Shown piece after piece: positions 8,050 through 53,105 of a DNA stretch of 64,000 nt. The stretch is from a virus (lineage: Duplodnaviria; Caudoviricetes). Position numbers and translations under genes: made by a program. Every line of letters starts with the position of its first letter. The first letter of the stretch is position 1. Under the pieces are notes generated by a model. It was not told where the DNA came from, did not search any database, and saw nothing but the letters and a program-made list of their open reading frames with translations. The stretch lies in the IMG/VR virus record IMGVR_UViG_3300044846_003573; one strand, 5' to 3'.

Positions 8050-8685
8050 ATGAACTTACACGAACACATAAAAAAAGTATTAAGAGAAGAGGTTAACAAG
8101 AAGTATTTGAAACCGAGTGAAAAATCCGAGAAATTTATTTTGGATAGATTGAATAGTATGGCTTCAGGTGCTGAAATATACCACGTTGAAAGTTATAAAA
8201 CAAGACACGATTTTGAGTTTTGTAAAAATGGAAAACAAATAATGAATCTCGCATTGTTCTTTGAAGAAACTGACGATAACACCCCAACGTCTGAAAGGAA
8301 ATTTGACTCTTCAACATTATCAGTACAAGAAGATTTTGTTGGTGGATTATTAGGGGCTTTTCCTGTTAGAAGAAATTATCTTTATTATATAATTGAAGAA
8401 TGGTTTGAAGATACTTTTTTAAGTAAAATCTCAAATATGATGGGTAGAAATGATATATCTGTTGAAGAATTATCATTTAATGATAGGTCATATACGTGTG
8501 TTCCACCAATTAATGAAGTACCTGAAGGAGTTACTCAAGACGAGATGATTAAGGTTATTATGAACAATACATTATGGCGTAAAAAAGATTTATTGGCGTT
8601 AGAAGAAAGAGAGCCTGGGTCTTTAGAATGGATGTATTTGAATAAACTTCGTAATAATGAGGTTAATAGATTAGATAATAGATAA
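8050..8685 (+). CDS. MNLQE-leader protein, unknown function
   Basis: Starts MNLHEHIKKVLREE. Confidence 0.7.
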   Translation: MNLHEHIKKVLREEVNKKYLKPSEKSEKFILDRLNSMASGAEIYHVESYKTRHDFEFCKNGKQIMNLALFFEETDDNTPTSERKFDSSTLSVQEDFVGGLLGAFPVRRNYLYYIIEEWFEDTFLSKISNMMGRNDISVEELSFNDRSYTCVPPINEVPEGVTQDEMIKVIMNNTLWRKKDLLALEEREPGSLEWMYLNKLRNNEVNRLDNR

Positions 8686-8686
8686 T

Positions 8687-8968
8687 ATGAACCTACAGGA
8701 ACAAATAAGAATAGTATTAAGGGAAGTAGTTAATGAATCCAAAGGTTGGAGTGATTCAAAGCAAAAATTAGAAAGAACTTTTAAATTCAAAGATTTTAAT
8801 GAATCAATGGGATTTGTTAATAAAGTTGCGAAGATTGCCGAATCACAAAATCATCATCCCGATATTAAAATAAATTACAACAAAGTAAAATTATCAATAA
8901 CTGACCACGAAAAGGGTGGGGTATCTGAAAAATGTCATAAATTGGTAAAGGCTATTGATAAACTCTAA
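8687..8968 (+). CDS. phhB: Pterin-4-alpha-carbinolamine dehydratase-like domain with MNLQE leader
   Basis: KLERTFKFKDFNESMGFVNKVAKIAESQNHHPDI...YNKV...TDHEKGGVSE. Confidence 0.8.
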   Translation: MNLQEQIRIVLREVVNESKGWSDSKQKLERTFKFKDFNESMGFVNKVAKIAESQNHHPDIKINYNKVKLSITDHEKGGVSEKCHKLVKAIDKL

Positions 8969-8972
8969 CAAT

Positions 8973-9455
8973 ATGAACCTACAAGAGAACATACAAAGGA
9001 TTAGAGAAATGATGGACATGCCTGATATGAATATATTAGATAAACCATTACAAATATGTAGTAAAAACCCAATGACAGGATATTACAGGGATGGGTATTG
9101 TAAGACGGATAGTTCAGATAAAGGAACACACACCGTTTGTAGTGAAGTAGATGATGAATTTCTTGAGTTTACAATGTCAAAAGGAAATGATTTATCTATG
9201 TTAAAAAGTGGGGACAGATGGTGTTTATGTGCAAATAGATGGAAAGAAGCGTATGATGCGGGTAAAGCACCAAAAGTAATTAAAAATGCGACAAACAAAA
9301 AAACATTAGATGTTATTGGTGATGATATTAAAGATGAAGAACTAACAGAATACGCAAGAACATTAAAAAACGCAAGACAACAGGGGGTTGGGTTAAGATT
9401 TCCGAAGTCAGCAATAAAAGCAAATCCAGCAAGGTTTAGACCTTACAACAGGTAA
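8973..9455 (+). CDS. DUF2237-family protein with MNLQE leader
   Basis: PLQICSKNPMTGYYRDGYC, GTHTVC, FLEF..SKGNDLS, GDRWCLCANRWKEA. Confidence 0.75.
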   Translation: MNLQENIQRIREMMDMPDMNILDKPLQICSKNPMTGYYRDGYCKTDSSDKGTHTVCSEVDDEFLEFTMSKGNDLSMLKSGDRWCLCANRWKEAYDAGKAPKVIKNATNKKTLDVIGDDIKDEELTEYARTLKNARQQGVGLRFPKSAIKANPARFRPYNR

Positions 9456-9456
9456 T

Positions 9457-9939
9457 ATGAAAAAAATAATAAGACTAACAGAATCACAACTTATTTCATT
9501 AGTTAAAAGAGTGATTAATGAAAGTGACCCGAAAGATGGGACTGGTAAAAAACCAAAAGGGTCTGACAGAAGATTATATACTGATGAAAACCCAAAGGAT
9601 ACTGTATCGGTTAAGTTCAGAACAAAAGAAGACATTGTTGATACTTTAAACAAAGAAAGTTTCAAATCTAAATCACACGCTCGTCAGTCTCAGATTATAA
9701 ATCTTATACATCAGAGATTACGAGTTGCTTTGGAAAGAGCAAAAGACCCTGAGGTTAAGAAAAGATTAAGAACTGCCTTTGAATATATTGAGTCCAAAAA
9801 AGAACAATCTAAAAAGAAAACTCAGGAGATGAAAGAAAGTGAATTAACTGAAAGATGTTGGAAAGGATATACTCAAAAAGGAATGAAAACTATGTTTGGT
9901 AAGAGATACCCTAACTGTGTTAAAAATACAAAGAAATGA
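9457..9939 (+). CDS. MKKxxRLTE-leader hypothetical phage protein
   Basis: MKKIIRLTESQLISLVKRVINE; RRLYTDENPKDTVSVKF; C-terminal CWKGY...YPNCVK. Confidence 0.7.
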   Translation: MKKIIRLTESQLISLVKRVINESDPKDGTGKKPKGSDRRLYTDENPKDTVSVKFRTKEDIVDTLNKESFKSKSHARQSQIINLIHQRLRVALERAKDPEVKKRLRTAFEYIESKKEQSKKKTQEMKESELTERCWKGYTQKGMKTMFGKRYPNCVKNTKK

Positions 9940-10367
9940 ACCTACAAGAAACAATAAGACGAATATTAAGGGAAGAACTATATTCTCCATCAGGAGATGA
10001 AATGACACCTAATAAGTTTGTGGTCCATAAATCAAATCCGGTATGGAGAAAGAATATACGACTTAATGGGTTGTTGACATCGGTAGGGGAATGTTATGAG
10101 AATCACGCAATGGATTTATATGGTGAATGGTATACGGAATGTCAACCAGCAATTTTTGCCACAGATTCATTGGATAAAGAAGATATGTTTAGTGATGGTT
10201 ATGATGATGACACATGGTTAATAGATACAGAATGTGCTGGGGTTACTTGGTATAGAGATGCACATTTCGAAGGTGGAGATTATGAACATCATATTGTGAC
10301 ATTTGAGAATATATCATCTAACTGTATAAAATTAATCAATAAAGGAACAGGTAAAAGTATTTGGTAA
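9936..10367 (+). CDS. MNLQE-leader protein, possible ADP-ribosyltransferase-like fold
   Basis: VVHKS...NIRLNGL...PAIFAT resembles the H-x-S/T...I...GL pattern of ART-fold proteins; weak. Confidence 0.4.
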   Translation: MNLQETIRRILREELYSPSGDEMTPNKFVVHKSNPVWRKNIRLNGLLTSVGECYENHAMDLYGEWYTECQPAIFATDSLDKEDMFSDGYDDDTWLIDTECAGVTWYRDAHFEGGDYEHHIVTFENISSNCIKLINKGTGKSIW

Positions 10368-10368
10368 G

Positions 10369-10989
10369 ATGAACCTACAGGAACACATAAGAAGAGTATT
10401 AAGGGAAGATAAAAAGAGTAAATTCATTATGGATATTGTTGATAAACATGGTGTTTATAAGACGGCAGAAATGATGGGTGTAACTATTACCTATTTATAC
10501 AAAATGTCTGATTTAAAAATTGATGAATTTGTTGCTAAAGAACTATTGGCTGAAAATATTGAAAATGGTAATTTACCTGCAAAATATAAAGGATTTGAAA
10601 TTGAAATAAGTAGTGATGATGTGTTTTATTGGGCAAGGCAGTTTAAATCGGGACACTATCCACCTAATGTATTAGAAAAAATATGGGTAATGGCAACACC
10701 TTTTTTCGCAACTGCTGATTATACACCCGTTGAACTTGATTGGTATGGATTAGAAGATGACTCAAAGAAACCTAATGTAGGAATATACGATACAAGTGGT
10801 GATGGTGATTATTTTGTGGAACTTACACATAATACACATAATGGTAATTATTTTTTTAATAGTGTTGATAATTTATTTGATTGGTATAATACGTTTTACT
10901 TACCAGAAGTGTATGAAATAATCTTGGATAGATTCATACCTGAAGTCCAAGAAGACACAGATGAAAGACTTAGAGATAAAAATACTTAA
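10369..10989 (+). CDS. MNLQE-leader protein, unknown function
   Basis: Starts MNLQEHIRRVLRED. Confidence 0.7.
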   Translation: MNLQEHIRRVLREDKKSKFIMDIVDKHGVYKTAEMMGVTITYLYKMSDLKIDEFVAKELLAENIENGNLPAKYKGFEIEISSDDVFYWARQFKSGHYPPNVLEKIWVMATPFFATADYTPVELDWYGLEDDSKKPNVGIYDTSGDGDYFVELTHNTHNGNYFFNSVDNLFDWYNTFYLPEVYEIILDRFIPEVQEDTDERLRDKNT

Positions 10990-11026: not shown

Positions 11027-11057
11027 AACCCCATTGAATTCGCTACTCAGTGGGGTT
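11027..11057. terminator. Bidirectional terminator overlapping the stop of the array gene
   Basis: aaccccattga-attcgctac-tcagtggggtt between convergent genes. Confidence 0.65.
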
Positions 11058-11777
11058 TTCATTTAAGACATCTTCCACCACTGGTGAATTACATGTACGT
11101 GATGTGTGTGTTGTAGTTACCTTATGATTTAGGACTTCTTTCACCTCACTGAGAACAATAGTGGGTCTACAATAGGTTTTAGACACCTTATGATTTAATA
11201 CCTTCTCCACCATATTCGGAAACGGCGGTGTATTGAATGATATTGTAGACACCTTATGATTTAATGCCTTTTCCACCAAAACCACTTGTTCCGCATTCGT
11301 CGTTTGTGTTGTAGATACCTTATGATTTAATACATCTTCCACCAAGAAACCTTCGTTACCGATATCGTTTTGCGTTGTGAATACCTTATAATTTAATACC
11401 TCTTCCATCTTCACATTTGCCTTCATGCCCATATAAACAGTTGTAGATACCTTATGATTTAATACCTCTTCCACCTCATCATACTTTTTCTCCGCACACA
11501 ATTCAGTTGTGGGCACCTTATGATTTAATACCTCTTCCACCCAAGAAGCGAGTATTGGTTCAAAATCTTTGGGTTCCAATGAGAAAATGGTAAAAAAACT
11601 ATTAAAGAAATAATATCTCCACCACAAACGACCACTCTTTTCAAATTCAAAATACCAATGCTCCTTTTCTCGGTCAATTAACCATATAGAATCTTTATAT
11701 GGGATTATCTCCACATTACCTAATTCTTTGTATAGTTGTTTGAATACAACCTGTTTTAATCTATCAGTTACTTTCAT
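11043..11777 (-). CDS. Array gene A: about 79-aa conserved N-domain plus 22-aa periodic array (VEEVLNHKVSTT + 10 variable aa)
   Basis: ORF track; N-domain shared with three paralogs. Confidence 0.85.
   Translation of the reverse strand: MKVTDRLKQVVFKQLYKELGNVEIIPYKDSIWLIDREKEHWYFEFEKSGRLWWRYYFFNSFFTIFSLEPKDFEPILASWVEEVLNHKVPTTELCAEKKYDEVEEVLNHKVSTTVYMGMKANVKMEEVLNYKVFTTQNDIGNEGFLVEDVLNHKVSTTQTTNAEQVVLVEKALNHKVSTISFNTPPFPNMVEKVLNHKVSKTYCRPTIVLSEVKEVLNHKVTTTHTSRTCNSPVVEDVLNENPTE
11061..11541 (-). CRISPR. CRISPR-like array A inside CDS: 7 full 36-bp repeats + 1 partial, 7 spacers of 30 bp (structure certain, CRISPR function unproven)
   Basis: Repeats start on + strand at 11110, 11176, 11242, 11308, 11374, 11440, 11506 (period 66); consensus GTTGTRGATACCTTATGATTTAATACCTCTTCCACC. 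Confidence 0.6.
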
Positions 11778-12507
11778 TTTCTTTTTTGTTGTTTAATGCC
11801 TCATCTACCGATTCCGCTCTTCTTGAGATGAATTCTTCCGTTTTGGATACCTTACGATTCAATATATCTTCCACCAAAAAGTTTCCTTCACCTACGTCAC
11901 GGACTGTTTTGGATACCTTAATATCCAATACCTCTTCCATCTCAAGATTACCTCTTGGGTGGAGATACTCCGTTGTAGATACCTTACGATTCAATACCTG
12001 TTCCACCAAATAGTTGTTAGATAAGGTCATGTTTTTTGTTGTGGATACCTTACTATTCAATACCTCTTCCATCATATCATTCGAAGTGAAACTGAATTGC
12101 TGAGTTGTGGATACCTTACTATTCAATACCTCTTCCACCCCTTGCTTAAAACTTCTGAAACGGCTTGCAGTTGTGGATACCTTACTATTCAATACCTCTT
12201 CCACCCCACCATCCATGACATATTGCGTGCTATCTGTTGTGGATACCTTACTATTCAATACCTCTTCCACCCAAGATGAAATAATTGGTTCAAAATCTTT
12301 GGACTCCAAAGAGAAAAAAGAAAAGAAAGATTTGAAATAATCATATCTCCAATATAAACATCCACTTTCAGTTAGTTGGAAATACCAGTATTTTTCTTCT
12401 CTATCAATAAACCAATAACTGTATTGGGTAGGGATAATTTCCACATTACCTAATTCTTTGTATAGTTGTTTGAATATGAGTTGTTTTAATCTATCCGTTA
12501 CTTTCAT
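11764..12507 (-). CDS. Array gene B
   Basis: ORF track; same architecture, repeat variants NSK/NRK. Confidence 0.85.
   Translation of the reverse strand: MKVTDRLKQLIFKQLYKELGNVEIIPTQYSYWFIDREEKYWYFQLTESGCLYWRYDYFKSFFSFFSLESKDFEPIISSWVEEVLNSKVSTTDSTQYVMDGGVEEVLNSKVSTTASRFRSFKQGVEEVLNSKVSTTQQFSFTSNDMMEEVLNSKVSTTKNMTLSNNYLVEQVLNRKVSTTEYLHPRGNLEMEEVLDIKVSKTVRDVGEGNFLVEDILNRKVSKTEEFISRRAESVDEALNNKKENESN
11791..12271 (-). CRISPR. CRISPR-like array B inside CDS: 7 full repeats + 1 partial, 7 spacers of 30 bp
   Basis: Repeats start at 11840, 11906, 11972, 12038, 12104, 12170, 12236; variant GTTGTGGATACCTTACTATTCAATACCTCTTCCACC. Confidence 0.6.
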
Positions 12508-13195
12508 TTTCTTTTTTATTGTTTAATGCCTTTTTCACCCAAACACTATTTAATACTTCTTCCACTGACCTTTCGGAAAACAAGGAATTATTTTTAGTTG
12601 TAGATACCCTACTATCTAATACTTTTTTTACCTTTCTTTTTTGGGCGGCGTCTACTTCAAAAGTTTCGGATACCTTATGATTTAAGACCTCTTCCACCCA
12701 CTTTGCTGTTACAGTAGTTTTCTCTTCAGTTGTGGATACCTTATGATTTAATACCTCTTCCACCAGAGGAAATTCGTCAATTACAAACATTTTTGTTGTG
12801 GATACCTTATGATTTAAGACCTCTTCCACCTGAAGTAAGCGGTGGGCCAATGTATTACCTGTTGTGGATACCTTATGATTTAATACCTCTTCCACCTTAT
12901 TGTCTCGGCGTACGGAAGGTATACGAGTTGTGGATACCTTATGATTTAAGACCTCTTCCACCCAAGAAGATATTATTGGTTCAAACTCACTCTGTTCCAA
13001 AGAGAAAATGCTGAAAAACGATGGGAAGAATGAGTATCTCCAAAATAAACATCCCTCTTTAGACAACTGAAAATACCAATAACAATTTTCCCTATCAATG
13101 AACCATACAGAGTCTTTATATGGGATTATCTCCGCATTACCTAACTCTTTGTATAGGTGTTTGAATATGAGTTGTTTTAGCTTATCTGTAACCAT
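12491..13195 (-). CDS. Array gene C
   Basis: ORF track, start moved to ATG at 13195; TATCTTTG just upstream. Confidence 0.85.
   Translation of the reverse strand: MVTDKLKQLIFKHLYKELGNAEIIPYKDSVWFIDRENCYWYFQLSKEGCLFWRYSFFPSFFSIFSLEQSEFEPIISSWVEEVLNHKVSTTRIPSVRRDNKVEEVLNHKVSTTGNTLAHRLLQVEEVLNHKVSTTKMFVIDEFPLVEEVLNHKVSTTEEKTTVTAKWVEEVLNHKVSETFEVDAAQKRKVKKVLDSRVSTTKNNSLFSERSVEEVLNSVWVKKALNNKKENESNG
12545..12962 (-). CRISPR. CRISPR-like array C inside CDS: 6 full repeats + partial, 6 spacers of 30 bp
   Basis: Repeats start at 12597, 12663, 12729, 12795, 12861, 12927. Confidence 0.6.
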
Positions 13196-13231
13196 AAGCA
13201 CAAAGATACAAAAAAACTTTGAAAATACAAA

Positions 13232-13570
13232 TTAATTTTCAGACGGTAATTTTAACGACCATTGGGAGCTCATTATCTTGTTGGACATTTGACCCTCCAA
13301 ATTCAGTTTTTTCTTAACCCATTGTCCAATAATTCTGGTAGATTGATAACTGTTAAGAGAAAAGAAGGAAGAAATTGCTTCAATTAAACCTTTATAGATA
13401 AAACACAATTCATTATTGGAATGATTACCACCATATTGAATTTGAGCAGACTCATCTTTAGGATATGAAAAATATATACTGGCACCAGTTTTAGTTATAT
13501 TGAAATCCTGACTATCAAGATACCTGAATATTACTTTATCTAATTGTGATTCTGTGATTAAATATTTCAT
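13232..13570 (-). CDS. MKYLITE-family protein
   Basis: MKYLITESQLDKVIFRYLD...SSFFSL...IIGQWV. Confidence 0.75.
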   Translation of the reverse strand: MKYLITESQLDKVIFRYLDSQDFNITKTGASIYFSYPKDESAQIQYGGNHSNNELCFIYKGLIEAISSFFSLNSYQSTRIIGQWVKKKLNLEGQMSNKIMSSQWSLKLPSEN

Positions 13571-13938
13571 GATAATGTTATACTTCTAACTGATTTAACT
13601 TCATAGTCAGGAAAGAACTCATTAAATACATCTGACATAATGAATTTGCCGTGAACTAACCAAATAGGATGAGGAAACGCTGTACCATATACATCGTCAA
13701 AGTTCCTATTATAGTATAAATCACCACTTGGTTTATTATAAACCATTACGGCGTTTTGGTCACTATCAAATAAGTTAAGTCTTAAATCATTTTCAGAATG
13801 TGAATCAACCAAATTTTCAAAATAACGAATCATTTTAGGTTTGAGTCTATTGTATTGTTCCGTATATTCAGAATCTCTCCAAGTTCTTTCAAGTTCGGAT
13901 ATTAAATTATATTGTGACTCGGTAATAATATACTTCAT
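13567..13938 (-). CDS. MKYLITE-leader protein
   Basis: MKYIITESQYNLISE. Confidence 0.7.
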   Translation of the reverse strand: MKYIITESQYNLISELERTWRDSEYTEQYNRLKPKMIRYFENLVDSHSENDLRLNLFDSDQNAVMVYNKPSGDLYYNRNFDDVYGTAFPHPIWLVHGKFIMSDVFNEFFPDYEVKSVRSITLS

Positions 13939-13970: not shown

Positions 13971-14294
13971 ATGAACCTACAAGAGAATATAAAAAAAGTA
14001 TTAAGGGAAGAAACAGATTTTTCACCACAGTTCAAAAGAAGACTGAATAGATTTAAATCGTTTGTATGGGATAATAATGTAACTAATTATCCATGTGATT
14101 TTGAAAACTTTGAAGCGTTCATGCGTGGTATACAACATGAAATTATGGACATGATTACAGATGGTTCTGATACCGATGGCCCGTTGTCTGATTGGTTAAC
14201 ATATAAAGATGGTGTTACGTATGTAGAAAACTACATGAGGGATGACTTAGAAAAGTTTTATAATAAGCAATGTGTTGATGTCTTATACGTATAA
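13971..14294 (+). CDS. MNLQE-leader protein
   Basis: MNLQENIKKVLREE. Confidence 0.7.
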   Translation: MNLQENIKKVLREETDFSPQFKRRLNRFKSFVWDNNVTNYPCDFENFEAFMRGIQHEIMDMITDGSDTDGPLSDWLTYKDGVTYVENYMRDDLEKFYNKQCVDVLYV

Positions 14295-14639
14295 ATCAAG
14301 AAATTGTTCAATTGATATTCCAAGACCTGAGATACCAAAAAAGTTCATAAAGTCGGATTCATCCCAAGTATCACATCCGTTATTAATAATCCAAGATTGA
14401 CCTGTGGCATAATTCATCTGATAAAGTAAATCATAACTATTATCTAATTTTATCAGATACATCGGACCATAATTGTCCATATTAAATCTTCTTTGCATAC
14501 TATTATAACTAATACACTCATCAAAAATTATCATTACATCAGTTAAATCTGGGTCAAACTCAACACGACCTGTCAGGTCAATATTAAACTTGTCTTTAAT
14601 GAATGTTTTTAATTTAGATTCGGTGATAAGATATTTCAT
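14283..14639 (-). CDS. MKYLITE-leader protein
   Basis: MKYLITESKL. Confidence 0.7.
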   Translation of the reverse strand: MKYLITESKLKTFIKDKFNIDLTGRVEFDPDLTDVMIIFDECISYNSMQRRFNMDNYGPMYLIKLDNSYDLLYQMNYATGQSWIINNGCDTWDESDFMNFFGISGLGISIEQFLDLYV

Positions 14640-14655
14640 TATATATAAATATTAG

Positions 14656-15066
14656 TTAACAATTTCCTGTATTATAAACCTCAATATTGTGAACACTAAT
14701 TAGACCGCCACCGAACTGATATAAAGCCTTAGAAATAACATCTCTATACATACTTCTTGTACCTTCCTCATAGATATACCTTCCCACATTTGCAGGAGCT
14801 GGCTTAGGTATGTAGACGACCAAATTCATAGAGTCACGAGTGGGGATGATATTATAACTACAATACATCAAGACGGTTGAGATATCATTTTCAAGTATAG
14901 TTTTTGTTAGAAAGATAATATCTTCTCTTGTTCCTTTAAGACCAATCTCATCAATAATATCTTCAGGTTCCTTATCAGTCATTTTACACAGAGTACGCAT
15001 ACCAAATTTCTCTAATAAGGGTTTAAGAGTTTTGTTATATTGATTCTCAGTGATTAAGTATTTCAT
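14656..15066 (-). CDS. MKYLITE-leader protein
   Basis: MKYLITENQY. Confidence 0.7.
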   Translation of the reverse strand: MKYLITENQYNKTLKPLLEKFGMRTLCKMTDKEPEDIIDEIGLKGTREDIIFLTKTILENDISTVLMYCSYNIIPTRDSMNLVVYIPKPAPANVGRYIYEEGTRSMYRDVISKALYQFGGGLISVHNIEVYNTGNC

Positions 15067-15078
15067 TATATGTAAATA

Positions 15079-15411
15079 TTAGTTATAGTGAACCTTCAAA
15101 ACTTCGGACTTGCTAAAGACAACCCATTGTGAGTAACTGACTTCCATTTGTAGGGTATTTCCAACCCAATTACCAATAATCTTTTTAGAGCGGACTTCAT
15201 CTAAAGAAAATAATACAGAGATGTCCTCAATTAAATTTAAGTTTATCTGACAAACACCATTTTTTTTATTATATCTAATTTGGGCATGTTCATCTTCTTC
15301 TGAATTAACAAAGAATATATTACTACTTGTTTCAATCTGAATAAAGTTCTGGCTATCCAAATATCTAAAGATTACTCTGTCTAATTGTGATTCGGTGATA
15401 AGGTATTTCAT
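15079..15411 (-). CDS. MKYLITE-family protein (WVxNTLQM subfamily)
   Basis: MKYLITESQLDRVIFRYLD...IGNWVGNTLQMEVSYS. Confidence 0.75.
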   Translation of the reverse strand: MKYLITESQLDRVIFRYLDSQNFIQIETSSNIFFVNSEEDEHAQIRYNKKNGVCQINLNLIEDISVLFSLDEVRSKKIIGNWVGNTLQMEVSYSQWVVFSKSEVLKVHYN

Positions 15412-15414
15412 ATA

Positions 15415-15735
15415 TTAATAATCAAAAAACATAACATCAACATCAAATGCTTTACTAAACCAATCAGAAATGAATTTACCTGATTGCTCTTTATCAAGTG
15501 GATACATGGATGAAAACTTATCTAAAAAAGATTCATCAATATATAATCTACCATCGCTGTGGTCAAACTCCATTAAAATAAAAAAATCAGGGCCTCTTTC
15601 AGGGCTATATATATTAATGAAATCACTATCTGATGTTCTATCATAATCTAATAATTTATTTAACTCAGATATCATTAAATTATTTATTACCGATTTGACT
15701 TTATCTAATTGTGATTCGGTGATGAGGTATTTCAT
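15415..15735 (-). CDS. MKYLITE-leader protein
   Basis: Start moved to ATG at 15735. Confidence 0.7.
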   Translation of the reverse strand: MKYLITESQLDKVKSVINNLMISELNKLLDYDRTSDSDFINIYSPERGPDFFILMEFDHSDGRLYIDESFLDKFSSMYPLDKEQSGKFISDWFSKAFDVDVMFFDY

Positions 15736-15768
15736 ATAAAATATAAATATAATCATATTTATAATAAT

Positions 15769-16098
15769 ATGAACTTAAAAGAATCTATAAAAAGAATACT
15801 GAGGGAAGAACTATCGGCGAGAATTAAAAGAAGACTTTCTAATGATGAAATGGAAAATGAGTTTCTTGAATCTTTTGAAGGCGCTTATCGTCTTACAAAA
15901 GACAGAAAGGTTTTAAGTTCACATTTTTTAGATGAGTTAGTCTACACAACAATAACCTTTATGATGGATGGGGTACATTGGAGATTTGTTAGTACATTAC
16001 CTGAAGATGAATTTTGGTATGATGATATACACCAAGGATTAGAAAATCATTATAGAAAAAGAATTACACGGATGTATAATGAAAGAAAAGGTTTTTAA
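15769..16098 (+). CDS. MNLQE-leader protein
   Basis: MNLKESIKRILREE. Confidence 0.7.
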   Translation: MNLKESIKRILREELSARIKRRLSNDEMENEFLESFEGAYRLTKDRKVLSSHFLDELVYTTITFMMDGVHWRFVSTLPEDEFWYDDIHQGLENHYRKRITRMYNERKGF

Positions 16099-16101
16099 AG
16101 A

Positions 16102-16380
16102 TTAATTAGAGTTTAAGAATTTGAGTAACGCTCTAATATATTCGGAACGTTTATTATAGAATTCAGTATCATCATCATATTGAAAAAACTCTTCACCTCT
16201 ATGTCTATCAACGAACTTTTCAATTAATTCATAAGCGTAGTCATCTCTGTCGGCGGAATCTTCAAAATCTTCTTCATCCATAATGTAGTTATAATCATCC
16301 CTAAGTGATTCCAATTCATCCATTGTAAACCTCCTAAGTAAAAATGCTTCTAACTGTGATTCTGTAATTAAGTATTTCAT
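16102..16380 (-). CDS. MKYLITE-leader acidic protein
   Basis: MKYLITESQLE; D/E-rich. Confidence 0.7.
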   Translation of the reverse strand: MKYLITESQLEAFLLRRFTMDELESLRDDYNYIMDEEDFEDSADRDDYAYELIEKFVDRHRGEEFFQYDDDTEFYNKRSEYIRALLKFLNSN

Positions 16381-16733
16381 TATTCGTTAACCATTAATCT
16401 GTAATCATATGGACCATCCCAAACCGTACTATCACTAATACCCAAAGTATTATTAACCCATGCTTTGATTATATCCAAACAATCCGATTTATCAATGGAG
16501 AAGAAGGTAGATAATTTATCAGTCAAATCAGAATTTACAAACACCCAATTCCTAACTTCACCAAAAGCGTTATTAGTATAAACACTAATCTGTGATTCCC
16601 TATCTGACTCACTGTTTAAGAAATATATATAATTGCTGAATTTCTTCTTGTTGTCATACATCACAAAGTCCTGAATATCAAGATACTTAAAGATTACTTT
16701 CTCTAATTTTGATTCGGTGATAAGGTATTTCAT
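16380..16733 (-). CDS. MKYLITE-family protein
   Basis: MKYLITESKLEKVIFKYLD...FFSID...WVNNTL. Confidence 0.75.
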   Translation of the reverse strand: MKYLITESKLEKVIFKYLDIQDFVMYDNKKKFSNYIYFLNSESDRESQISVYTNNAFGEVRNWVFVNSDLTDKLSTFFSIDKSDCLDIIKAWVNNTLGISDSTVWDGPYDYRLMVNE

Positions 16734-17068
16734 TATATATAAATATTCTTAGGTATTTTCAACCAAGACTGGGTCATCAAACCAGCCTTGGTGGTATTTG
16801 TAACTTTCATTTGTAGGGTATTCCCAACCCACCTACCAATAGCCGATTCAGAATCAGATTTGTCCAAAGAAAATAACGATGAGATGTTCTTGATTAATTC
16901 GGGACTTATTACGCAACCAAAATTACCATTTTTGATTTGAGCATATTCATCATCTTCAGAGTTAACGAAGTATACTAAAAGACCTATTTTAATTTGAATA
17001 AAATCTTGATGGTTCAAGTAAATAAAGATTGCTCTATCTAATTGTGATTCGGTGATAAGGTATTTCAT
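16733..17068 (-). CDS. MKYLITE-family protein (WVxNTLQM subfamily)
   Basis: ...AIGRWVGNTLQMKVTNT + 10 aa + LKIP. Confidence 0.75.
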   Translation of the reverse strand: MKYLITESQLDRAIFIYLNHQDFIQIKIGLLVYFVNSEDDEYAQIKNGNFGCVISPELIKNISSLFSLDKSDSESAIGRWVGNTLQMKVTNTTKAGLMTQSWLKIPKNIYI

Positions 17069-17080
17069 TATATATAAGTA

Positions 17081-17395
17081 TTAGTTAGGTGCTCTCAATC
17101 GTTCAGTGGGTAGGGTGTAAGAAATCTTTATTTGGAGAGTATCACTAACCCAACTACCAATAACTTCTTTTGAATCTAAATAATGTAAAGAAAATAAAGA
17201 AGAAATCTCATCAATTAATTTAGTGGATATATAACACCATTCATTAGTTATACTAGATTTAATTTGAGCGTATTCGTCACCTTCTGAATTAATAAAGTAT
17301 ACACCACCATTTTTCTCAATCTGAATAAAATCCTGATTATCCAAGTACTTAAAGATTACCTGATTTAATTTAGATTCTGTTATAAGGTATTTCAT
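17081..17395 (-). CDS. MKYLITE-family protein
   Basis: Start moved to ATG at 17395; ...VIGSWVSDTLQIKISYT. Confidence 0.75.
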   Translation of the reverse strand: MKYLITESKLNQVIFKYLDNQDFIQIEKNGGVYFINSEGDEYAQIKSSITNEWCYISTKLIDEISSLFSLHYLDSKEVIGSWVSDTLQIKISYTLPTERLRAPN

Positions 17396-17502
17396 TATAT
17401 ATAAATACAAAGATACACATAAAACTGAACAATACATATTGGGTTAATAATTTAATAAGAATATGATAATATGGTTTGAGGTTGTTTTTAATACTTATTA
17501 TT

Positions 17503-18210
17503 ATGGATTTATCAAAGTTTTTAACCATAGTAATCCCTTGTAAGAACGAGGGCAAGATAATAGAACAAACGTTGTCCTTATTAAACTTTCAAAAGGGAAT
17601 ACAAGATGTTAGAGTTATTGTTTGTGATTCATCGGATGATGATTATACATCCTATTCTTTGGAAAATAGGAGAACAGATTATTTTAATCTACAGATTATT
17701 TCAGGAGGACTTCCGTCTGTTGCAAGAAATAAGGGGGCTGAGAATGTGGAAACACCTTATGTTTTATTTTTGGATGCTGACATATTCTTATTGGATTTCA
17801 ACATATTAAACAATTGTATATGGGAGTTCTTATTACATAATACAGATTTGATTACATGTAAGGTAAGGTCAACGACAGGTGAGTATAATAGTATATTCAG
17901 ATTGTTTGATACAATACAAAAGGTATTTAAACCAATCACGCCATTTTGTCTTGGTGGGTTCATGATGGTAAAGAAAGAAGTATATGATACAATCGGTGGG
18001 TTTGATGAAAACGCAAGAGTTGCCGAGGATTATCTATTCTCCAAACAAGTTAAACCAAGCAAGTTTTATATCATGAATACGACGGTATTCACAAGTCCAA
18101 GAAGGTTCAAACAGAAAGGGGTGTGGTATATGTTAAAACTTATGGTTAGTTCATTCTTCAACAGAAACAATAAAAATCATTTTGAGGATGATAAAGGATA
18201 CTGGGAATGA
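17503..18210 (+). CDS. Glycosyltransferase family 2
   Basis: TIVIPCKNEG, VIVCDSSDD, ARNKGA, YVLFLDAD, GGFDE...AED. Confidence 0.85.
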   Translation: MDLSKFLTIVIPCKNEGKIIEQTLSLLNFQKGIQDVRVIVCDSSDDDYTSYSLENRRTDYFNLQIISGGLPSVARNKGAENVETPYVLFLDADIFLLDFNILNNCIWEFLLHNTDLITCKVRSTTGEYNSIFRLFDTIQKVFKPITPFCLGGFMMVKKEVYDTIGGFDENARVAEDYLFSKQVKPSKFYIMNTTVFTSPRRFKQKGVWYMLKLMVSSFFNRNNKNHFEDDKGYWE

Positions 18211-18923
18211 ATAATTGGAAAACAATAATCATGAGTGATTTACACTTAGGAGCAAGACAATCACAGACAGATAAGATAATAAGTTTCTTGGATAATAACA
18301 CAACAGAAAAACTAATACTGAACGGTGATATTATAGATGGTTGGGCTCTTAAAGGTAATGGTAAATGGACGAAGGATTGTACCAAGATATTCAGGAAGTT
18401 CATGAAGATGTCTGAGAAGAATACAAAGGTAATTTATATAAGAGGAAACCACGATGACTTCCTAAAAGATTTTATTCCATTTAAATTAAACAACATTAGG
18501 ATTGTAAGAAAGTATATACATAATGGTATTGACGGAAGAAAGTATTTTTGTTTTCACGGGGATGTATTGGATTTCGTTATAATGGAAGCGAGGTGGTTAG
18601 CAGTAATCGGTGGATGGTCATATGATATTGTCATTAAGTTTAATACTCTATATAACAAAATAAGAAAGTGGTTTAACTTACCATATCATTCATTGGCAAA
18701 CACAATAAAACAATCAGTAAAAGGGGCAATTAACTTTGTATCTGATTTTGAACAAAACGCGAAAGGTCTAACAAAACAAAAGGGATATGATGTTGCGGTG
18801 TGTGGACATATTCATCACCCGAAGATAGAGAATGACTATATGAACTCAGGAGACTTTTGTGAGAACTCTACATGTCTTGTAGAAGATTATAACGGGGAGT
18901 GGAAGATTATTACTATTAGTTAG
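18207..18923 (+). CDS. Calcineurin-like metallophosphoesterase, UDP-2,3-diacylglucosamine hydrolase (LpxH)-like
   Basis: SDLHLG, LNGDIIDGW, RGNHDD, FHGD, CGHIHHP, YMNSGDF. Confidence 0.85.
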   Translation: MNNWKTIIMSDLHLGARQSQTDKIISFLDNNTTEKLILNGDIIDGWALKGNGKWTKDCTKIFRKFMKMSEKNTKVIYIRGNHDDFLKDFIPFKLNNIRIVRKYIHNGIDGRKYFCFHGDVLDFVIMEARWLAVIGGWSYDIVIKFNTLYNKIRKWFNLPYHSLANTIKQSVKGAINFVSDFEQNAKGLTKQKGYDVAVCGHIHHPKIENDYMNSGDFCENSTCLVEDYNGEWKIITIS

Positions 18924-19245
18924 GTATTTTAAACAAATTGTTCACATCGTGAAAGACCAAACGGGTATAAGTAACCCTCATTTGTAGAGTATTTTCAACC
19001 CATCTACCGATAACTTCCTTAGAATCATATATGTCCAAAGAAAAGAAAGAAGAAATTTCGTAAATTAATCCATGGCGTATATAACACCAACCATCGTTTC
19101 TATCATATCTGATTTGGGCATATTTATCATCTTCCGAATTAACAAAGTATATTGCGTTTCCTCTTTTAATCTGAATAAAGTTCTTAATATCCAAATATCT
19201 AAAGATTACTCTGTCTAATTGTGATTCTGTGATAAGATATTTCAT
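18916..19245 (-). CDS. MKYLITE-family protein (WVxNTLQM subfamily)
   Basis: ...VIGRWVENTLQMRVTYT + 10 aa + FKIPN. Confidence 0.75.
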   Translation of the reverse strand: MKYLITESQLDRVIFRYLDIKNFIQIKRGNAIYFVNSEDDKYAQIRYDRNDGWCYIRHGLIYEISSFFSLDIYDSKEVIGRWVENTLQMRVTYTRLVFHDVNNLFKIPN

Positions 19246-19275: not shown

Positions 19276-20070
19276 TTATTGATTTAAGACCTGTTCCATC
19301 ACATAGTTCATAACAGACATTTCTACATCCGTTGTACATTCCTTATGATTTAATACCTCTTCCACCCCTCTTGTGAAGGGTCCAGAATATGCTTCCAATG
19401 TTGATACCTTATGATTTAATACCTCTTCTACCTCAATTTTTCCAACGTAATCAAGTGAATCGGTTGTAGATACCTTATGATTTAATACTTCTTCCACCAA
19501 TGAATGTTCGGGGTATTTGAGAATGGTAGTTGTAGACACCTTAACATTATGACTTAATACATCTTCCACCCGTGTTCGGATATGAGCATTGTGAGTATTA
19601 GTTGTGGATACCTTACTATTCAATACCTCTTCCACCTTCCAAGGAACACGAACTTTAACATCGCACGTTGTGGATACCTTATGATTTAATACATCTTCCA
19701 CCATCATGCTTTCAACACCGCTACCTGTCACGGTTGTAGATACCTTATGATTTAAGACCTCTTCCACCTTGTCCGTTGTAATTGGAAGTGGAATGAAGGT
19801 TGTGGATACCTTATGATTTAAGACCTCTTCCACCCAAGAAGATAGAACAGGACAAAAATCATCCAAACTCATGGAGAATATTTGAAAAAACGAATTAAAA
19901 AAATCGTATCTCCACCATAAAGTACCTGACTCATCAAGTTCAAAGTACCAGTATTTATTATCCCTATTAATAAACCATATAGACCCATTATAAGGAATAA
20001 TCTCACAATCACCCAACTCTTTATATAGGTGTTTAAAAATAAGTTGTTTTAATCTATCTGTAATAACCAT
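19276..20070 (-). CDS. Array gene D
   Basis: ORF track; same N-domain and 22-aa array; TATATTTG at 20075-20082 upstream. Confidence 0.85.
   Translation of the reverse strand: MVITDRLKQLIFKHLYKELGDCEIIPYNGSIWFINRDNKYWYFELDESGTLWWRYDFFNSFFQIFSMSLDDFCPVLSSWVEEVLNHKVSTTFIPLPITTDKVEEVLNHKVSTTVTGSGVESMMVEDVLNHKVSTTCDVKVRVPWKVEEVLNSKVSTTNTHNAHIRTRVEDVLSHNVKVSTTTILKYPEHSLVEEVLNHKVSTTDSLDYVGKIEVEEVLNHKVSTLEAYSGPFTRGVEEVLNHKECTTDVEMSVMNYVMEQVLNQ
19281..19834 (-). CRISPR. CRISPR-like array D inside CDS: 8 full repeats (one with a 6-bp insertion) + partial, 8 spacers of 30 bp
   Basis: Repeats start at 19331, 19397, 19463, 19529 (42 bp), 19601, 19667, 19733, 19799. Confidence 0.6.
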
Positions 20071-20885: not shown

Positions 20886-21182
20886 ATGAATAATAATTTA
20901 TCAACAATTCCCCCTGACGATATGTCTAACCCCATTTCCATACCTGACATACTGAAAAATTTAAGGGTTGTAACTGACCCTTTACGGGATGTTGTTGCTG
21001 TGACCCTATATTATAATGGGGAAAAGGTGGGTAAGATGGAGTATAGGAAGGCTTCATCTACGTATCAGGGGGATATGAAGATATTAACATTGTATTCTCT
21101 GACCCCTGAGTTCATGGAGTTATTCAAGGGACATGAAAATCCCATACGTGTTTTGGACAACCATGTTAAAGTGTTTGTTTAA
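20886..21182 (+). CDS. Hypothetical protein
   Basis: ORF track. Confidence 0.55.
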   Translation: MNNNLSTIPPDDMSNPISIPDILKNLRVVTDPLRDVVAVTLYYNGEKVGKMEYRKASSTYQGDMKILTLYSLTPEFMELFKGHENPIRVLDNHVKVFV

Positions 21183-33073: not shown

Positions 33074-33557
33074 ACCATTCAGGTGTATCTCTATTTTTCC
33101 ATTTAGCAAAATCTTTTTTAGCTCCGTTATAGTAGTTTCTATATGATTCTATAACGTCTTTTACTTTATACTCATCGGGCATTGCTTTTGGAGGTTCTGT
33201 AAAACCTTTATCACAAATGTTTAACTTATTTGTGATACACCACTCAATAACATCTTGAGATTTATGACGTTTTCCGTATCTATAAGTGTATTCTTTACAT
33301 AATTCAACTCCTAAGTCACAAAGATAAAGATAGTTTGATAATGACTCTCTGACCCATATTGAACAGGGGTGGTTTTTATGTGATAACTTATACGGTACTT
33401 GGTCGGTACTTGGTCGGTACTTGGTGGGTACTTGGTGGGTTACATGGTGGGCTCCACATAATAGTTGTGCAGTCTCAAGTATCATCTTAACCACGTGTTT
33501 ATCACAATGGTATTCTGCACATTTTTTTGTATCCCAATCCAAAAAGAAGATATTCAT
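33009..33557 (-). CDS. Pyrimidine dimer DNA glycosylase / endonuclease V-like protein
   Basis: MNIFFLD...AEYHCDKHVVKMILETAQLL, SHKNHPCSIWVRES, EYTYRYGKRHKS, PPKAMPDEYK. Confidence 0.75.
   Translation of the reverse strand: MNIFFLDWDTKKCAEYHCDKHVVKMILETAQLLCGAHHVTHQVPTKYRPSTDQVPYKLSHKNHPCSIWVRESLSNYLYLCDLGVELCKEYTYRYGKRHKSQDVIEWCITNKLNICDKGFTEPPKAMPDEYKVKDVIESYRNYYNGAKKDFAKWKNRDTPEWFIHSSIVASEQPIVPVASEVF
33394..33437. repeat. 11-bp tandem repeat x4 inside CDS
   Basis: ggtacttggtc x2, ggtacttggtg x2. Confidence 0.9.
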
Positions 33558-51213: not shown

Positions 51214-53105
51214 TGGAATATATGAATAAAAATACTCTTTTAATTGAAAAAGAATTACCTAAAAAAGGTGATGGTACAAAAGAATTACCTAAAAAAGGTG
51301 ATGGTACAAAAGAATTGCCTAAAAAAGGTGATAGTACAAAAGAATTACCTAAAAAAGGTGATAGTACAAAAGAATTACCTAAAAAGGATACTCCTGAAAA
51401 AAGTGGTAAGGTTGATGTAACATTAGACCACCCAAAAGACCAAGCTCAAGGTGATGCTTTTAGAGCTTGGATGTCAGTAAATCGCCCGGATTTTAAATGT
51501 GGTAGTGACAAACTTGAAAATAAAAAAGGTATGTCATTTAAAAATAATTGTATAAAACTGGCTTGGAAGGATAACAAAGGAGATTTTTTAAAATTATCAC
51601 CACAACAACAAACTGAATTATCTAAAAAAGTTGAATTTCCAATTAATACTATTGATAGGTCAAATAAATTCAGAAAATGGTTAAAAAGTTTTCGTGTTGG
51701 TTTTTTCAAACAAAAAAATATTAGAGATATTATTTCAAATATCCAAGACGATGCTGATTCTATTAAAATCGCTTGGGAAGAATATGGTAATGAGTTTATT
51801 CAATTTTTACTTAATTCACCTAACTCAGCTTTACAAGCGTTAGGTAAACAAATTAAAGATGAAAACGAAAATTGGTTAAAAACTGGTGAAGGTCTTGATG
51901 TTGGGTTTGAAAAACAAATTGAATCAGAAAAAAGAAAATGCGAGCCTTGGACTTTAGGTAATTTATTTGAAAAAAAATATAAAAGAGAAGGAGTTGATAA
52001 ATTAAATCAAAAGGCTAAAGAATTTATCGAATGGTCAGGTGAAAAAGGTTGGTATGGTAATTTAGTACCATCTGATTTTTGTGGTTTTGATGCCAATGAT
52101 ATTGACTGGGATAATGATGTTTGGATGGATGAAGATAGTGGAGAACATCAAATTTACCAGCATCCAATTGTTAGATTATTGTCGTTACATAAAGTTTGGA
52201 TGAGAGACGAACTTACTCGTGTTGATAGGAAGAGTGATTTATTTACTAAGTTTTTAAAGGATAGTGGTGAAGAAGTTACACCATATGTTTCAGGTGGTAG
52301 AAGTGAAGAAGGACGAACTAAAAACGTTAGACTTTCAGATACACCTGCGGACTCAAGTGCTGAAGTAATTTTATCGGCAGGTGCTAACAGAAATTTATGT
52401 GTTAATTTAAGAAATGCTTTAAAATCATCTTCAGATAGAAGTGAAACAGTTCAAAGGGCTATTCAAATGTGTAATTCAAAAAATTCAAATTGGTTAAAAA
52501 CGGATTTAGAAAGTAGAGTGAAAACTAAATTAAAAGTATTTCAGGAAGGTAAAATGATTAAAGAAACTATTCAAAACAAATTAAAATCAAAGAAGAATGA
52601 AAAATCTTTGAGTACCCTATCAGAACAGTTTAACAAACAAAATTATAGAAAATTCTTCGATACGTTAACTAAATTTAGAAATAATAATATCAATGAAGCA
52701 ACCAATGCAGAATTTGAAAAATCATTTGACGTTGTTTTTCAAGGAAAAGAATCTGAATTTAAAAACAGAGCAATAGAATATATCTTAGGCAAATTGGAAG
52801 TTTCACCATCGTCTGAACTTGGTAAAAGTATTAAATCAGAATTAGATAAAGTATCTGCTAAAGATATGTTTAGAAATGAATATGATGTCCCTGAGGCAAT
52901 ATCAAAAGCAATTGAAACATCTTCACAAACAAATAATGGTGAACAAACGGGATTAAAAGGTATTGTATCCCAATCAATTAAATTTGACGATAAACAAATC
53001 AAACAAGGTGTTAGACAACATCTTCACGATTATATCGAAGGCGTTAAAGATGATATTAAGTCTTTAGAACAAAAATTAAAAAGTTCAATCATAAAAGACA
53101 TCTAA
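51210..53105 (+). CDS. Large hypothetical protein with N-terminal KELPKKGD(G/S)T repeats
   Basis: ORF track. Confidence 0.65.
   Translation: MMEYMNKNTLLIEKELPKKGDGTKELPKKGDGTKELPKKGDSTKELPKKGDSTKELPKKDTPEKSGKVDVTLDHPKDQAQGDAFRAWMSVNRPDFKCGSDKLENKKGMSFKNNCIKLAWKDNKGDFLKLSPQQQTELSKKVEFPINTIDRSNKFRKWLKSFRVGFFKQKNIRDIISNIQDDADSIKIAWEEYGNEFIQFLLNSPNSALQALGKQIKDENENWLKTGEGLDVGFEKQIESEKRKCEPWTLGNLFEKKYKREGVDKLNQKAKEFIEWSGEKGWYGNLVPSDFCGFDANDIDWDNDVWMDEDSGEHQIYQHPIVRLLSLHKVWMRDELTRVDRKSDLFTKFLKDSGEEVTPYVSGGRSEEGRTKNVRLSDTPADSSAEVILSAGANRNLCVNLRNALKSSSDRSETVQRAIQMCNSKNSNWLKTDLESRVKTKLKVFQEGKMIKETIQNKLKSKKNEKSLSTLSEQFNKQNYRKFFDTLTKFRNNNINEATNAEFEKSFDVVFQGKESEFKNRAIEYILGKLEVSPSSELGKSIKSELDKVSAKDMFRNEYDVPEAISKAIETSSQTNNGEQTGLKGIVSQSIKFDDKQIKQGVRQHLHDYIEGVKDDIKSLEQKLKSSIIKDI
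51248..51387 (+). repeat. 30-bp in-frame tandem repeat, 4 full copies + partial
   Basis: aaaagaattacctaaaaaaggtgat(g/a)gtac. Confidence 0.9.

Follow-up and report, generated by a model that had tools for sequence, protein, structure and literature searches.

A jumbo-phage array gene whose unique peptide cassettes are probably shuffled by recombination within a conserved repeat

We analysed a 64,000-nucleotide stretch of DNA (hereafter the window) from IMG/VR record IMGVR_UViG_3300044846_003573, which belongs to an uncultured lake jumbo phage (Caudoviricetes), and we describe here one of its genes, array gene D (positions 19276-20070), in which an N-terminal domain (N-domain) is followed by eight units, each made of a constant 12-residue repeat and a 10-residue segment, or cassette, that is unique to the unit. 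On balance we consider it probable that gene D arose by amplification of part of a single-domain ancestor and that its cassettes are shuffled by crossovers within the repeats, with an inherited insertion in one repeat and with no ruler of the kind that measures spacers in CRISPR arrays. From its sequence, gene D appears to belong to an undescribed and widespread protein family in which recombination shuffles the cassettes and whose geometry is like that of CRISPR.

Results

A protein-coding array of unique cassettes

An earlier note on this DNA had described D as sharing its N-domain and repeat with three other array genes of the window (A, B and C), as holding eight spacers of 30 bp that match none of those in A-C, and as carrying at 19529-19570 a repeat that is longer by 6 nucleotides (nt) and flanked by spacers of 30 bp. 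Parsing of the open reading frame (ORF) confirmed this observation in place; the longer repeat lies at 19528-19569 in codon register, and the other figure counts from the G one base upstream. Seven units measure 66 nt and unit 5 measures 72 nt, and the cassettes (in order, FIPLPITTDK, VTGSGVESMM, CDVKVRVPWK, NTHNAHIRTR, TILKYPEHSL, DSLDYVGKIE, EAYSGPFTRG and DVEMSVMNYV) are all 30 nt long (8/8). An all-versus-all comparison of the 28 cassettes in the window found no pair with more than 15 of 29 nt (mean 7.8) or more than 4 of 10 residues identical, which is the chance level, and none of the eight D cassettes (0/8) matched any of the 20 in A-C; the N-domain of D is ~68-69% identical in nucleotides to those of A, B and C. 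Homology of D cassettes to A-C cassettes in the same order, which the earlier note would have taken as a sign of simple gene duplication, was found nowhere within the window, although arrays at the D locus elsewhere do hold C-type sequence (see below). Cassettes of D are also found in other arrays, differently combined, and repeat 4 of D carries a Ser variant otherwise typical of array B.

The array is far more regular than expected by chance and codes for protein in a single frame. Across 347 distinct cassettes from 122 DNA-distinct array ORFs we found no in-frame stop (0/3,470 codons; the two remaining sense frames have 3.8% and 7.1% stops). Among near-identical cassettes grouped in clusters, 59 variants are synonymous and 62 non-synonymous (expected 22.5% synonymous, p = 2e-10), and the ratio of non-synonymous to synonymous rates (dN/dS) is ~0.3 for cassettes (~0.24 in a first, smaller set) and ~0.16 for the N-domain. 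Units are spaced at 22 codons in 665 of ~716 spacings, and the lengths of homologues step by 22 residues among the matches listed (152, 174, 196, 218, 242 and 264 residues). The lack of in-frame stops, the excess of synonymous changes and these length steps uphold the proposal of the earlier note that frame is under selection, and they suggest that each cassette, though unrelated to the others, is kept as a peptide by purifying selection. The 22-residue period is also kept in distant lineages with another repeat consensus (86 of ~115 spacings), and this suggests that the protein is constrained. Gly, Ser, Thr, Pro and Arg are abundant in cassettes, and 377 cassettes showed no positional residue preference except for a last codon of the form NNG; their G+C content by codon position is 0.459, 0.409 and 0.377 (vs. 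0.322, 0.293 and 0.296 in N-domains).

Exchange of whole cassettes

We found that close relatives, whose N-domains are 94-99.6% identical and whose common cassettes are 97-100% identical in nucleotides, have arrays that differ by whole cassettes. Cassette identity is bimodal (98 pairs agree at 8-9 of 10 residues, and identity then falls to the chance level with almost nothing between), adjacent cassettes are no more similar than random pairs, a duplicated cassette occurs in only 2 of 154 arrays, and in 857 of 872 instances the cassettes keep their order. In nearly identical phages, such fast turnover of individually conserved cassettes is typical of a protein in an arms race. Where arrays share a cassette and differ in its neighbour, the intervening repeat differs mostly at the side away from the shared cassette, on both sides (2.18 differences per 35 nt in upstream repeats and 5.18 in downstream repeats; 4.86 in random pairs; the analysis uses single cassette-repeat-cassette junctions, which short reads can span). 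A linkage gradient on both sides is what would be expected if crossovers fall inside the repeat.

Exchange between loci is seen in two contigs, L012 and L014, at the D locus. Their flanks share only 73-76% identity with the window, yet over most of its length their N-domain agrees with window gene C at 90-93%, and their last cassette matches that of D at 29-30 of 30 nt. Arrays span 2 to 12 units, and identical arrays were recovered from independent samples (L001 = L002, L004 = L005 = L006, L014 = L015), which supports the assemblies. Two other origins of cassette diversity were considered and set aside: duplication with divergence is ruled out by the bimodal identity and the dissimilar neighbours, and hypermutation is ruled out by shared cassettes being as conserved as the N-domain.

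We propose that the ancestor was a protein with an alpha/beta domain of ~100 residues, one repeat-like segment and a short tail, and that its last 22 codons (the end of helix 3 and the short tail) were amplified in tandem to give the array; the single-domain paralogues of the window, which align with the array genes over the domain and the repeat-like segment, likely represent this ancestral form. Homologous recombination would then cross over inside the repeats and delete, insert and swap whole cassettes, by exchange among alleles, among the four paralogues and among diverged phage lineages. In-register crossovers inside the repeat would pass on cassette length and frame, selection on the protein would remove the rest, and the protein would display short peptides, in varying sets, on a constant scaffold, like other phage proteins in arms races.

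The 42-nt repeat variant

The earlier note had read the constant 30-bp cassettes beside a longer repeat as the mark of a ruler that sets spacer length independently of repeat length. We found instead that the insertion arose when the hexamer AAGGTN was duplicated in tandem and later mutated (AATGTT AAGGTG, 19537-19548); the variant reads ...CAT AAT GTT AAG GTG... and the normal repeat ...CAT AAG GTA.... The 42-nt repeat is present in 15 DNA-distinct arrays, once in each and always directly upstream of cassette TILKYPEHSL, in 10 neighbour contexts (three upstream and eight downstream neighbours). It occurs at no other repeat of these 15 arrays, so that the propagation to neighbouring repeats, for which the earlier note had proposed a search, did not take place. 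In one homologue, a near-identical cassette, TIIKYPEHSL, stands behind a normal repeat. These sequences suggest a single old slippage event, inherited with its cassette as a marker of one unit, and a repeat that can tolerate an in-frame insertion or deletion. As one inherited duplication the insertion would be uninformative on cassette length, and the ruler is not borne out; cassette length would be constant because whole cassettes are inherited through crossovers inside repeats and because the protein is constrained to a 22-residue period.

Discussion

Observations that weigh against shuffling by recombination

A number of observations fit poorly with, or limit, the account in which crossovers within repeats shuffle the cassettes. 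The conserved block of 36 nt lies one base off codon phase and is followed by a variable block of 30 nt. In 314 of 347 cassettes the first Val codon is preceded by G, and hence the final codon of the variable part almost always has the form NNG and almost always encodes one of L, K, M, E, R, S, Q, W, G, V, T, A or P; the last Thr codon has a random wobble base (T 142, C 111, A 101, G 87). Simple gene conversion fails to explain why the repeat has one fixed and one free edge, and the survival of the 42-nt variant uncorrected points to weak gene conversion between repeats. Four-fold sites inside the repeat block are 90-98% conserved, and third codon positions of the repeat are 84-94% identical where N-domain proteins are 51-60% identical and the third positions of the N-domains themselves, in the same divergent lineages, are 51-65% identical; the repeat also fixes codons that are rare in N-domains (AAG, TCC and GAG). 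Its conservation goes beyond the needs of the protein. The cassette repertoire is large (of 239 clusters in 89 distinct complete arrays, 153 occurred a single time, and the estimate is ~580 clusters), and recombination alone creates no new cassettes. All arrays come from short-read metagenome assemblies, in which longer-range strain chimeras are possible. AlphaFold2 gave the array region a predicted local distance difference test score (pLDDT) of 30-40, disordered or unmodelled (one model, built on a shallow, gappy alignment of 60 sequences), and a scaffold with displayed peptides is what we infer for an array without predicted structure. Finally, no RNA or protein evidence of expression was found.

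The GGTGG at the start of the repeat may be a hot spot for recombination, and the G+C content of cassettes may be raised by GC-biased repair in a region hot for recombination. Within the repeat the best conserved residues are V1 (93%), V4 (94%), L5 (100%) and V9 (97%), and residue 3 is Glu in 79%, Asp in 12% and Lys in 7% of units; some lineages have repeats with V-D-K or V-E-N as their first residues. Repeats degenerate toward the C-terminus, where distal units lose the motif, and this decay is mainly non-synonymous (0.63 to 2.6 codons), with a nearly flat synonymous component (0.88 to 1.2). As an age clock the decay is weakened, since a mostly non-synonymous rise fits relaxed selection on distal units better.

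Alternative explanations

The off-phase boundary and the DNA-level conservation of the repeat are what active acquisition of DNA would leave behind. A phage or host enzyme would insert 30-nt segments beside the N-domain and duplicate the 36-nt repeat, much as in CRISPR adaptation; as 36 + 30 = 66 is a multiple of three, the frame would be kept, and selection would retain the insertions that are stop-free and useful. The machinery, perhaps borrowed from the host, would diversify a phage protein with captured or new DNA instead of storing guides. We regard this proposal as improbable. In its favour, the blocks of 36 nt and 30 nt meet at sharp edges set without regard to codon phase, nucleotide conservation of the repeat extends across lineages, the cassettes bear no relation to one another and show neither intermediates nor any trace of duplication and later divergence, their G+C content lies above that of the N-domain at all three codon positions, unique cassettes are commonest beside the N-domain (0.47 at position 1 vs. 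0.18 at the last; 0.40 vs. 0.11 in another count), and repeat degeneracy grows toward the C-terminus. However, among the relatives, which are IMG/VR contigs of up to 240 kb, five records (estimated 37-82% complete) were searched with profiles, and in these both Cas1 (PF01867; cas2 and effector genes were not searched) and reverse transcriptase (PF00078) were absent. Rfam, including its CRISPR repeat families, held no match to the repeat, which also occurred nowhere in a collection of genomes from 185,579 species. Outside orthologous arrays no cassette found a match in the phage collection, in 338 kb of local DNA, in a Bacteroidia metagenome-assembled genome (MAG) or in exact scans, which together have a limited coverage of possible sources; cassettes matched neither N-domains, repeats, other registers nor the other strand, and the 338 kb of local DNA held no second copy or silent donor of any cassette. 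The novelty beside the N-domain is, moreover, only a gradient (upstream of the anchor CDVKVRVPWK, 52 occurrences comprise 34 distinct clusters, and downstream of it 76 occurrences comprise 30), the repeat decay is better explained by relaxed selection than by age, and lineages with other repeats keep the 22-residue period. A genuinely non-coding CRISPR array, or an RNA decoy that imitates the CRISPR repeat of a host and is open in one frame by accident, would share the geometry, in that regular 36-nt repeats alternate with unique spacers of a constant 30 nt, and the repeat does have a weak 5-bp terminal stem. Yet the array invariably follows in frame on a folded domain of 88 residues, the absence of stops is confined to one frame, and the peptides are under purifying selection (dN/dS ~0.3); array RNA folds no better than shuffled sequence (z = +1.27), and variants of the stem break pairs without compensation and show no covariation. 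Given these results and the same lack of Cas1, of an Rfam match and of the repeat in representative prokaryote genomes, we give this explanation next to no credence; for practical purposes the evidence of coding and selection refutes the identity of D as a CRISPR array.

Two further proposals concern what the protein does, and both a cleaved precursor and a variable-loop solenoid, as well as a disordered motif-presenting tail, are possible readings that are compatible with shuffling by recombination. AlphaFold2 predicted residues 1-88 with pLDDT ~90 (helix 5-18, four strands within 23-53, helices 55-65 and 69-85) and the single-domain paralogue directly downstream of D with pLDDT 92, its tail adding a strand (93-97) to the fold; we found no known fold for the domain (best Z 5.5 and 4.5 in the PDB), only two unnamed proteins in the AlphaFold DB clusters and only unnamed proteins of uncultured phages in BFVD. 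In a multi-core peptide precursor or polyprotein, which we consider rather unlikely, the 12-mer would be a recognition or cleavage site and the cassettes would be the products, released by a prohead protease of the T4 gp21 type (the array then being a set of capsid-internal, injected peptides) or by the HExxH protein encoded near D. A constant N-terminus followed many times by a constant flank and a variable core, the several paralogous genes per genome, the purifying selection on each cassette and the array's lack of predicted structure would all suit a precursor, and a gp21-type protease, Peptidase_S77 (PF03420), scored above the curated cut-off in four of the five related records. Proteases of this type cut after a Glu that follows a short motif, and propeptides can hold several such sites (PMC9026906); the repeats start V-E-E, and the start of the small paralogues, MKYLITE, resembles a capsid-targeting leader of T4. 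On the other hand, only 79% of units have Glu at residue 3 of the repeat (with V-D-K or V-E-N starts in some lineages), the array proteins start M-V-I-T-D or M-K-V-T-D and lack a leader Glu, and no cassette position favours the residues that modifying enzymes need. In 38 loci, distant lineages included, a homologue of the HExxH protein does occur a few kb or less from array genes, although its match is sub-threshold and the proximity may be general synteny. No maturation enzyme was recognised in adjoining genes, where Pfam found a GT2 glycosyltransferase, a metallophosphoesterase and the sub-threshold SprT-like HExxH match, none of them an enzyme known to act on ribosomally synthesized and post-translationally modified peptides (RiPPs); the first two adjoin D in most close relatives and are absent from L001 and L002. 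Nor do we think it likely that the array is a folded solenoid, with the 12-mer as a core amphipathic helix and the ten variable residues as surface loops forming a binding face that unit shuffling re-assorts, comparable to transcription activator-like effectors, the internally conserved repeats of fungal NLR proteins or lamprey variable lymphocyte receptors. The most conserved repeat residues are hydrophobic and helix-spaced, the same segment forms the buried end of helix 3 in the N-domain, the strict period of 22 residues that divergent lineages share suggests that structure constrains it, and the composition of the cassettes is loop-like; against this, AlphaFold2 found almost no secondary structure over the array, arrays of every size from 2 to 12 units occur, and the C-terminal-most units lose the motif.

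Comparison with known systems

CRISPR arrays of types II-C and VI-B in Bacteroidota have 36-nt repeats and 30-nt spacers. Like such arrays, D has 36-nt direct repeats conserved as DNA, unique 30-nt spacers and a degenerate last repeat, its family has more unique units at one end, and relatives keep distal units and differ by gain or loss of whole units; unlike them, D is translated in frame with its spacers selected as peptides, and it has no cas1, protospacers, significant RNA fold or repeat in prokaryote genomes, as searched here. Multi-core RiPP precursors, such as the cyanobactin precursors PatE and TruE, are similar in their constant N-terminus, near-identical flanks, cores replaced wholesale and several genes per genome. 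D differs in its 88-residue folded domain, in the lack of a residue pattern in its cores, in units of 22 residues that number up to 12 per gene, and in being carried by a phage. Lamprey variable lymphocyte receptors are assembled somatically from silent donor cassettes that encode leucine-rich-repeat modules; as in D, short cassettes are chosen combinatorially between constant parts, whereas D varies in the germ line of a phage population and has no silent donors in the 338 kb of local DNA. Diversity-generating retroelements likewise target hypervariability to the C-terminal end of a phage protein, but D has neither a reverse transcriptase nor a template copy, and whole cassettes are replaced in place of adenine-directed mutation.

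Transcription activator-like (TAL) effectors and the repeats of fungal NLR proteins resemble D in their near-identical DNA repeats, confined variation and alleles made by unequal or inter-allelic recombination, and differ in that D has ten contiguous unrelated residues per unit, not 2-4 variable positions, and no predicted solenoid. The fungal repeats are of the WD40, ANK and TPR kinds, with high internal conservation and hypervariable positions (PMC12222747), and macrocyclic-peptide precursors of sponges are multi-core proteins with a repeated constant flank and a hypervariable core (PMC10945851). The internal proteins of T4 and the cargo proteins of giant phages (PMC9026906) are like the family of D in being clustered, small, fast-changing paralogues with a shared leader, and relatives of D encode a gp21-type protease. 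Unlike T4 proteins tagged with a capsid-targeting sequence, the array proteins (MVITD or MKVTD) lack the leader Glu, although I-T-E does stand at residues 5-7 of the single-domain paralogues.

Phage genomes abound in fast-changing genes. In this family, variation would be packaged as discrete, individually conserved 10-residue cassettes that are swapped among phages at a repeat conserved as DNA, amounting to a natural modular peptide library in jumbo phages of many lake metagenomes. It may serve as a system for asking how recombination is channelled into protein diversity, what the peptides bind in hosts or rival phages, and whether coding sequences use CRISPR-like insertion. Were active acquisition true, its footprints would be the out-of-phase boundary, the DNA conservation of the repeat, the unrelated and G+C-richer cassettes and the surplus of unique ones beside the N-domain. 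Programs that find CRISPR arrays will call array genes CRISPR, which makes the family a source of false calls of phage-encoded CRISPR.

Relatives and occurrence

A homologue search with the array protein returned at least 978 metagenomic proteins, and none is annotated among the matches listed; the annotation and the lengths given above rest on the best 120 of these. A profile of the domain retrieved 781 clusters at 50% identity, mostly of ~100-125 residues and some with arrays. No relative of the region, the array protein or a single-domain paralogue was found in the GenBank phage collection (megablast, blastn and tblastn), array proteins and small paralogues had no match in Pfam and PHROGs, and the Protein Atlas gave no usable match to the family. 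The DNA of this phage is present in at least 20 lake-water metagenome runs, and public lake-metagenome contigs place the phage in many samples; these contigs end at every repeat, so no within-sample history of an array can be read from them. The sole match among prokaryote genomes was a 2.8-kb contig binned with a Bacteroidia MAG from Lake Mendota, a weak hint that the host is possibly a freshwater member of the Bacteroidia. We also found the exact repeat on a Tara Oceans scaffold (L077) and in ENA assembly ERZ807358 (L040), and the family may not be confined to lakes. In the MKYLITE-type branch, two proteins (P0154 and P0224) have an array with the 22-residue period and a different repeat (VENDLQMRVTNT or VGNTLQTEVTST); given these arrays, the arrangement would either be old or have arisen more than once.

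Genome setting

Table 1. Gene D, its parts, its paralogues and selected neighbours in the window.
Feature	Position	Strand	Basis
Array gene D (P0001), 264 aa	19276-20070	-	ORF and translation; same-locus orthologues in related phage contigs
N-domain of gene D, 79 aa	19834-20070	-	Parsing of ORF
Predicted folded alpha/beta N-terminal domain, residues 1 to ~88; last helix ends within first repeat (SSWVEEVLNH)	19807-20070	-	AlphaFold2; homology to single-domain paralogues
Eight repeat-plus-cassette units of D, each 12 constant (VEEVLNHKVSTT) and 10 unique residues	19300-19833	-	Parsing
Units 1-4 of D	19833-19768, 19767-19702, 19701-19636, 19635-19570	-	Parsing
Units 5-8 of D	19569-19498, 19497-19432, 19431-19366, 19365-19300	-	Parsing
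42-nt variant repeat VEDVLSHNVKVSTT of unit 5 (14 constant residues)	19528-19569 (codon register); 19528-19570 (with conserved upstream G)	-	Sequence
Degenerate terminal partial (ninth) repeat MEQVLNQ and stop	19276-19299	-	Parsing; common ending in many D-type homologues
Paralogous array gene C (P0004)	12491-13201	-	ORF parsing, build as in D
Paralogous array gene B (P0003)	11764-12507	-	ORF parsing, build as in D
Paralogous array gene A (P0002)	11043-11777	-	ORF parsing, build as in D
Single-domain paralogue, 109 aa, directly downstream of D	18916-19245	-	Domain once, one repeat-like segment (WVENTLQMRVTYT), one short tail
Six single-domain paralogues, 109-118 codons, start MKYLITES	13232-13570, 15079-15411, 16380-16733, 16733-17068, 17081-17437, 18916-19245	-	Alignment with array genes
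GT2 glycosyltransferase and calcineurin-like phosphoesterase, between array genes	17476-18923	+	Pfam
HExxH protein (IIHEYTHH), 191 aa	21166-21741	-	Sub-threshold SprT-like and DUF6782 metallopeptidase matches

All six single-domain genes of Table 1 have one repeat-like segment (WVENTLQMRVTYT) and one short tail. Other small genes share their first residues and have different bodies (13567-13938, 14283-14639, 14656-15066, 15415-15756 and 16102-16380). Array genes C and B overlap by 17 nt (12491-12507) and B and A by 14 nt (11764-11777), the region of the stop (…KKENESN) holding the next start, which suggests translational coupling. An ORF at 20886-21182 is conserved alongside the HExxH gene as its partner. 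A scan for promoters and terminators stayed at the chance level.

The window has ~30% G+C and also encodes an amidase and a ClpB/ClpC-like ATPase. A leader, MNLQE-x-I-x-x-VLREE, is common to unrelated proteins (8050-10989, 13971-14294, 15769-16098, +), among them a DUF2237 protein (8955-9455) and a protein (8687-8968) that by eye resembles pterin-4a-carbinolamine dehydratase. Near-perfect tandem repeats of 30 nt (4.6 copies, 51248-51385) lie inside an ORF of 631 residues, and a tandem repeat of 11 nt (4.4 copies) lies at 33393-33448. An ORF of 588 residues (35467-37233, + strand) fuses a polyphosphate kinase 2 domain to a phage lysozyme domain, and a short glutamine-synthetase-like gene (417-1436, + strand, 339 residues) has both glutamine synthetase domains.

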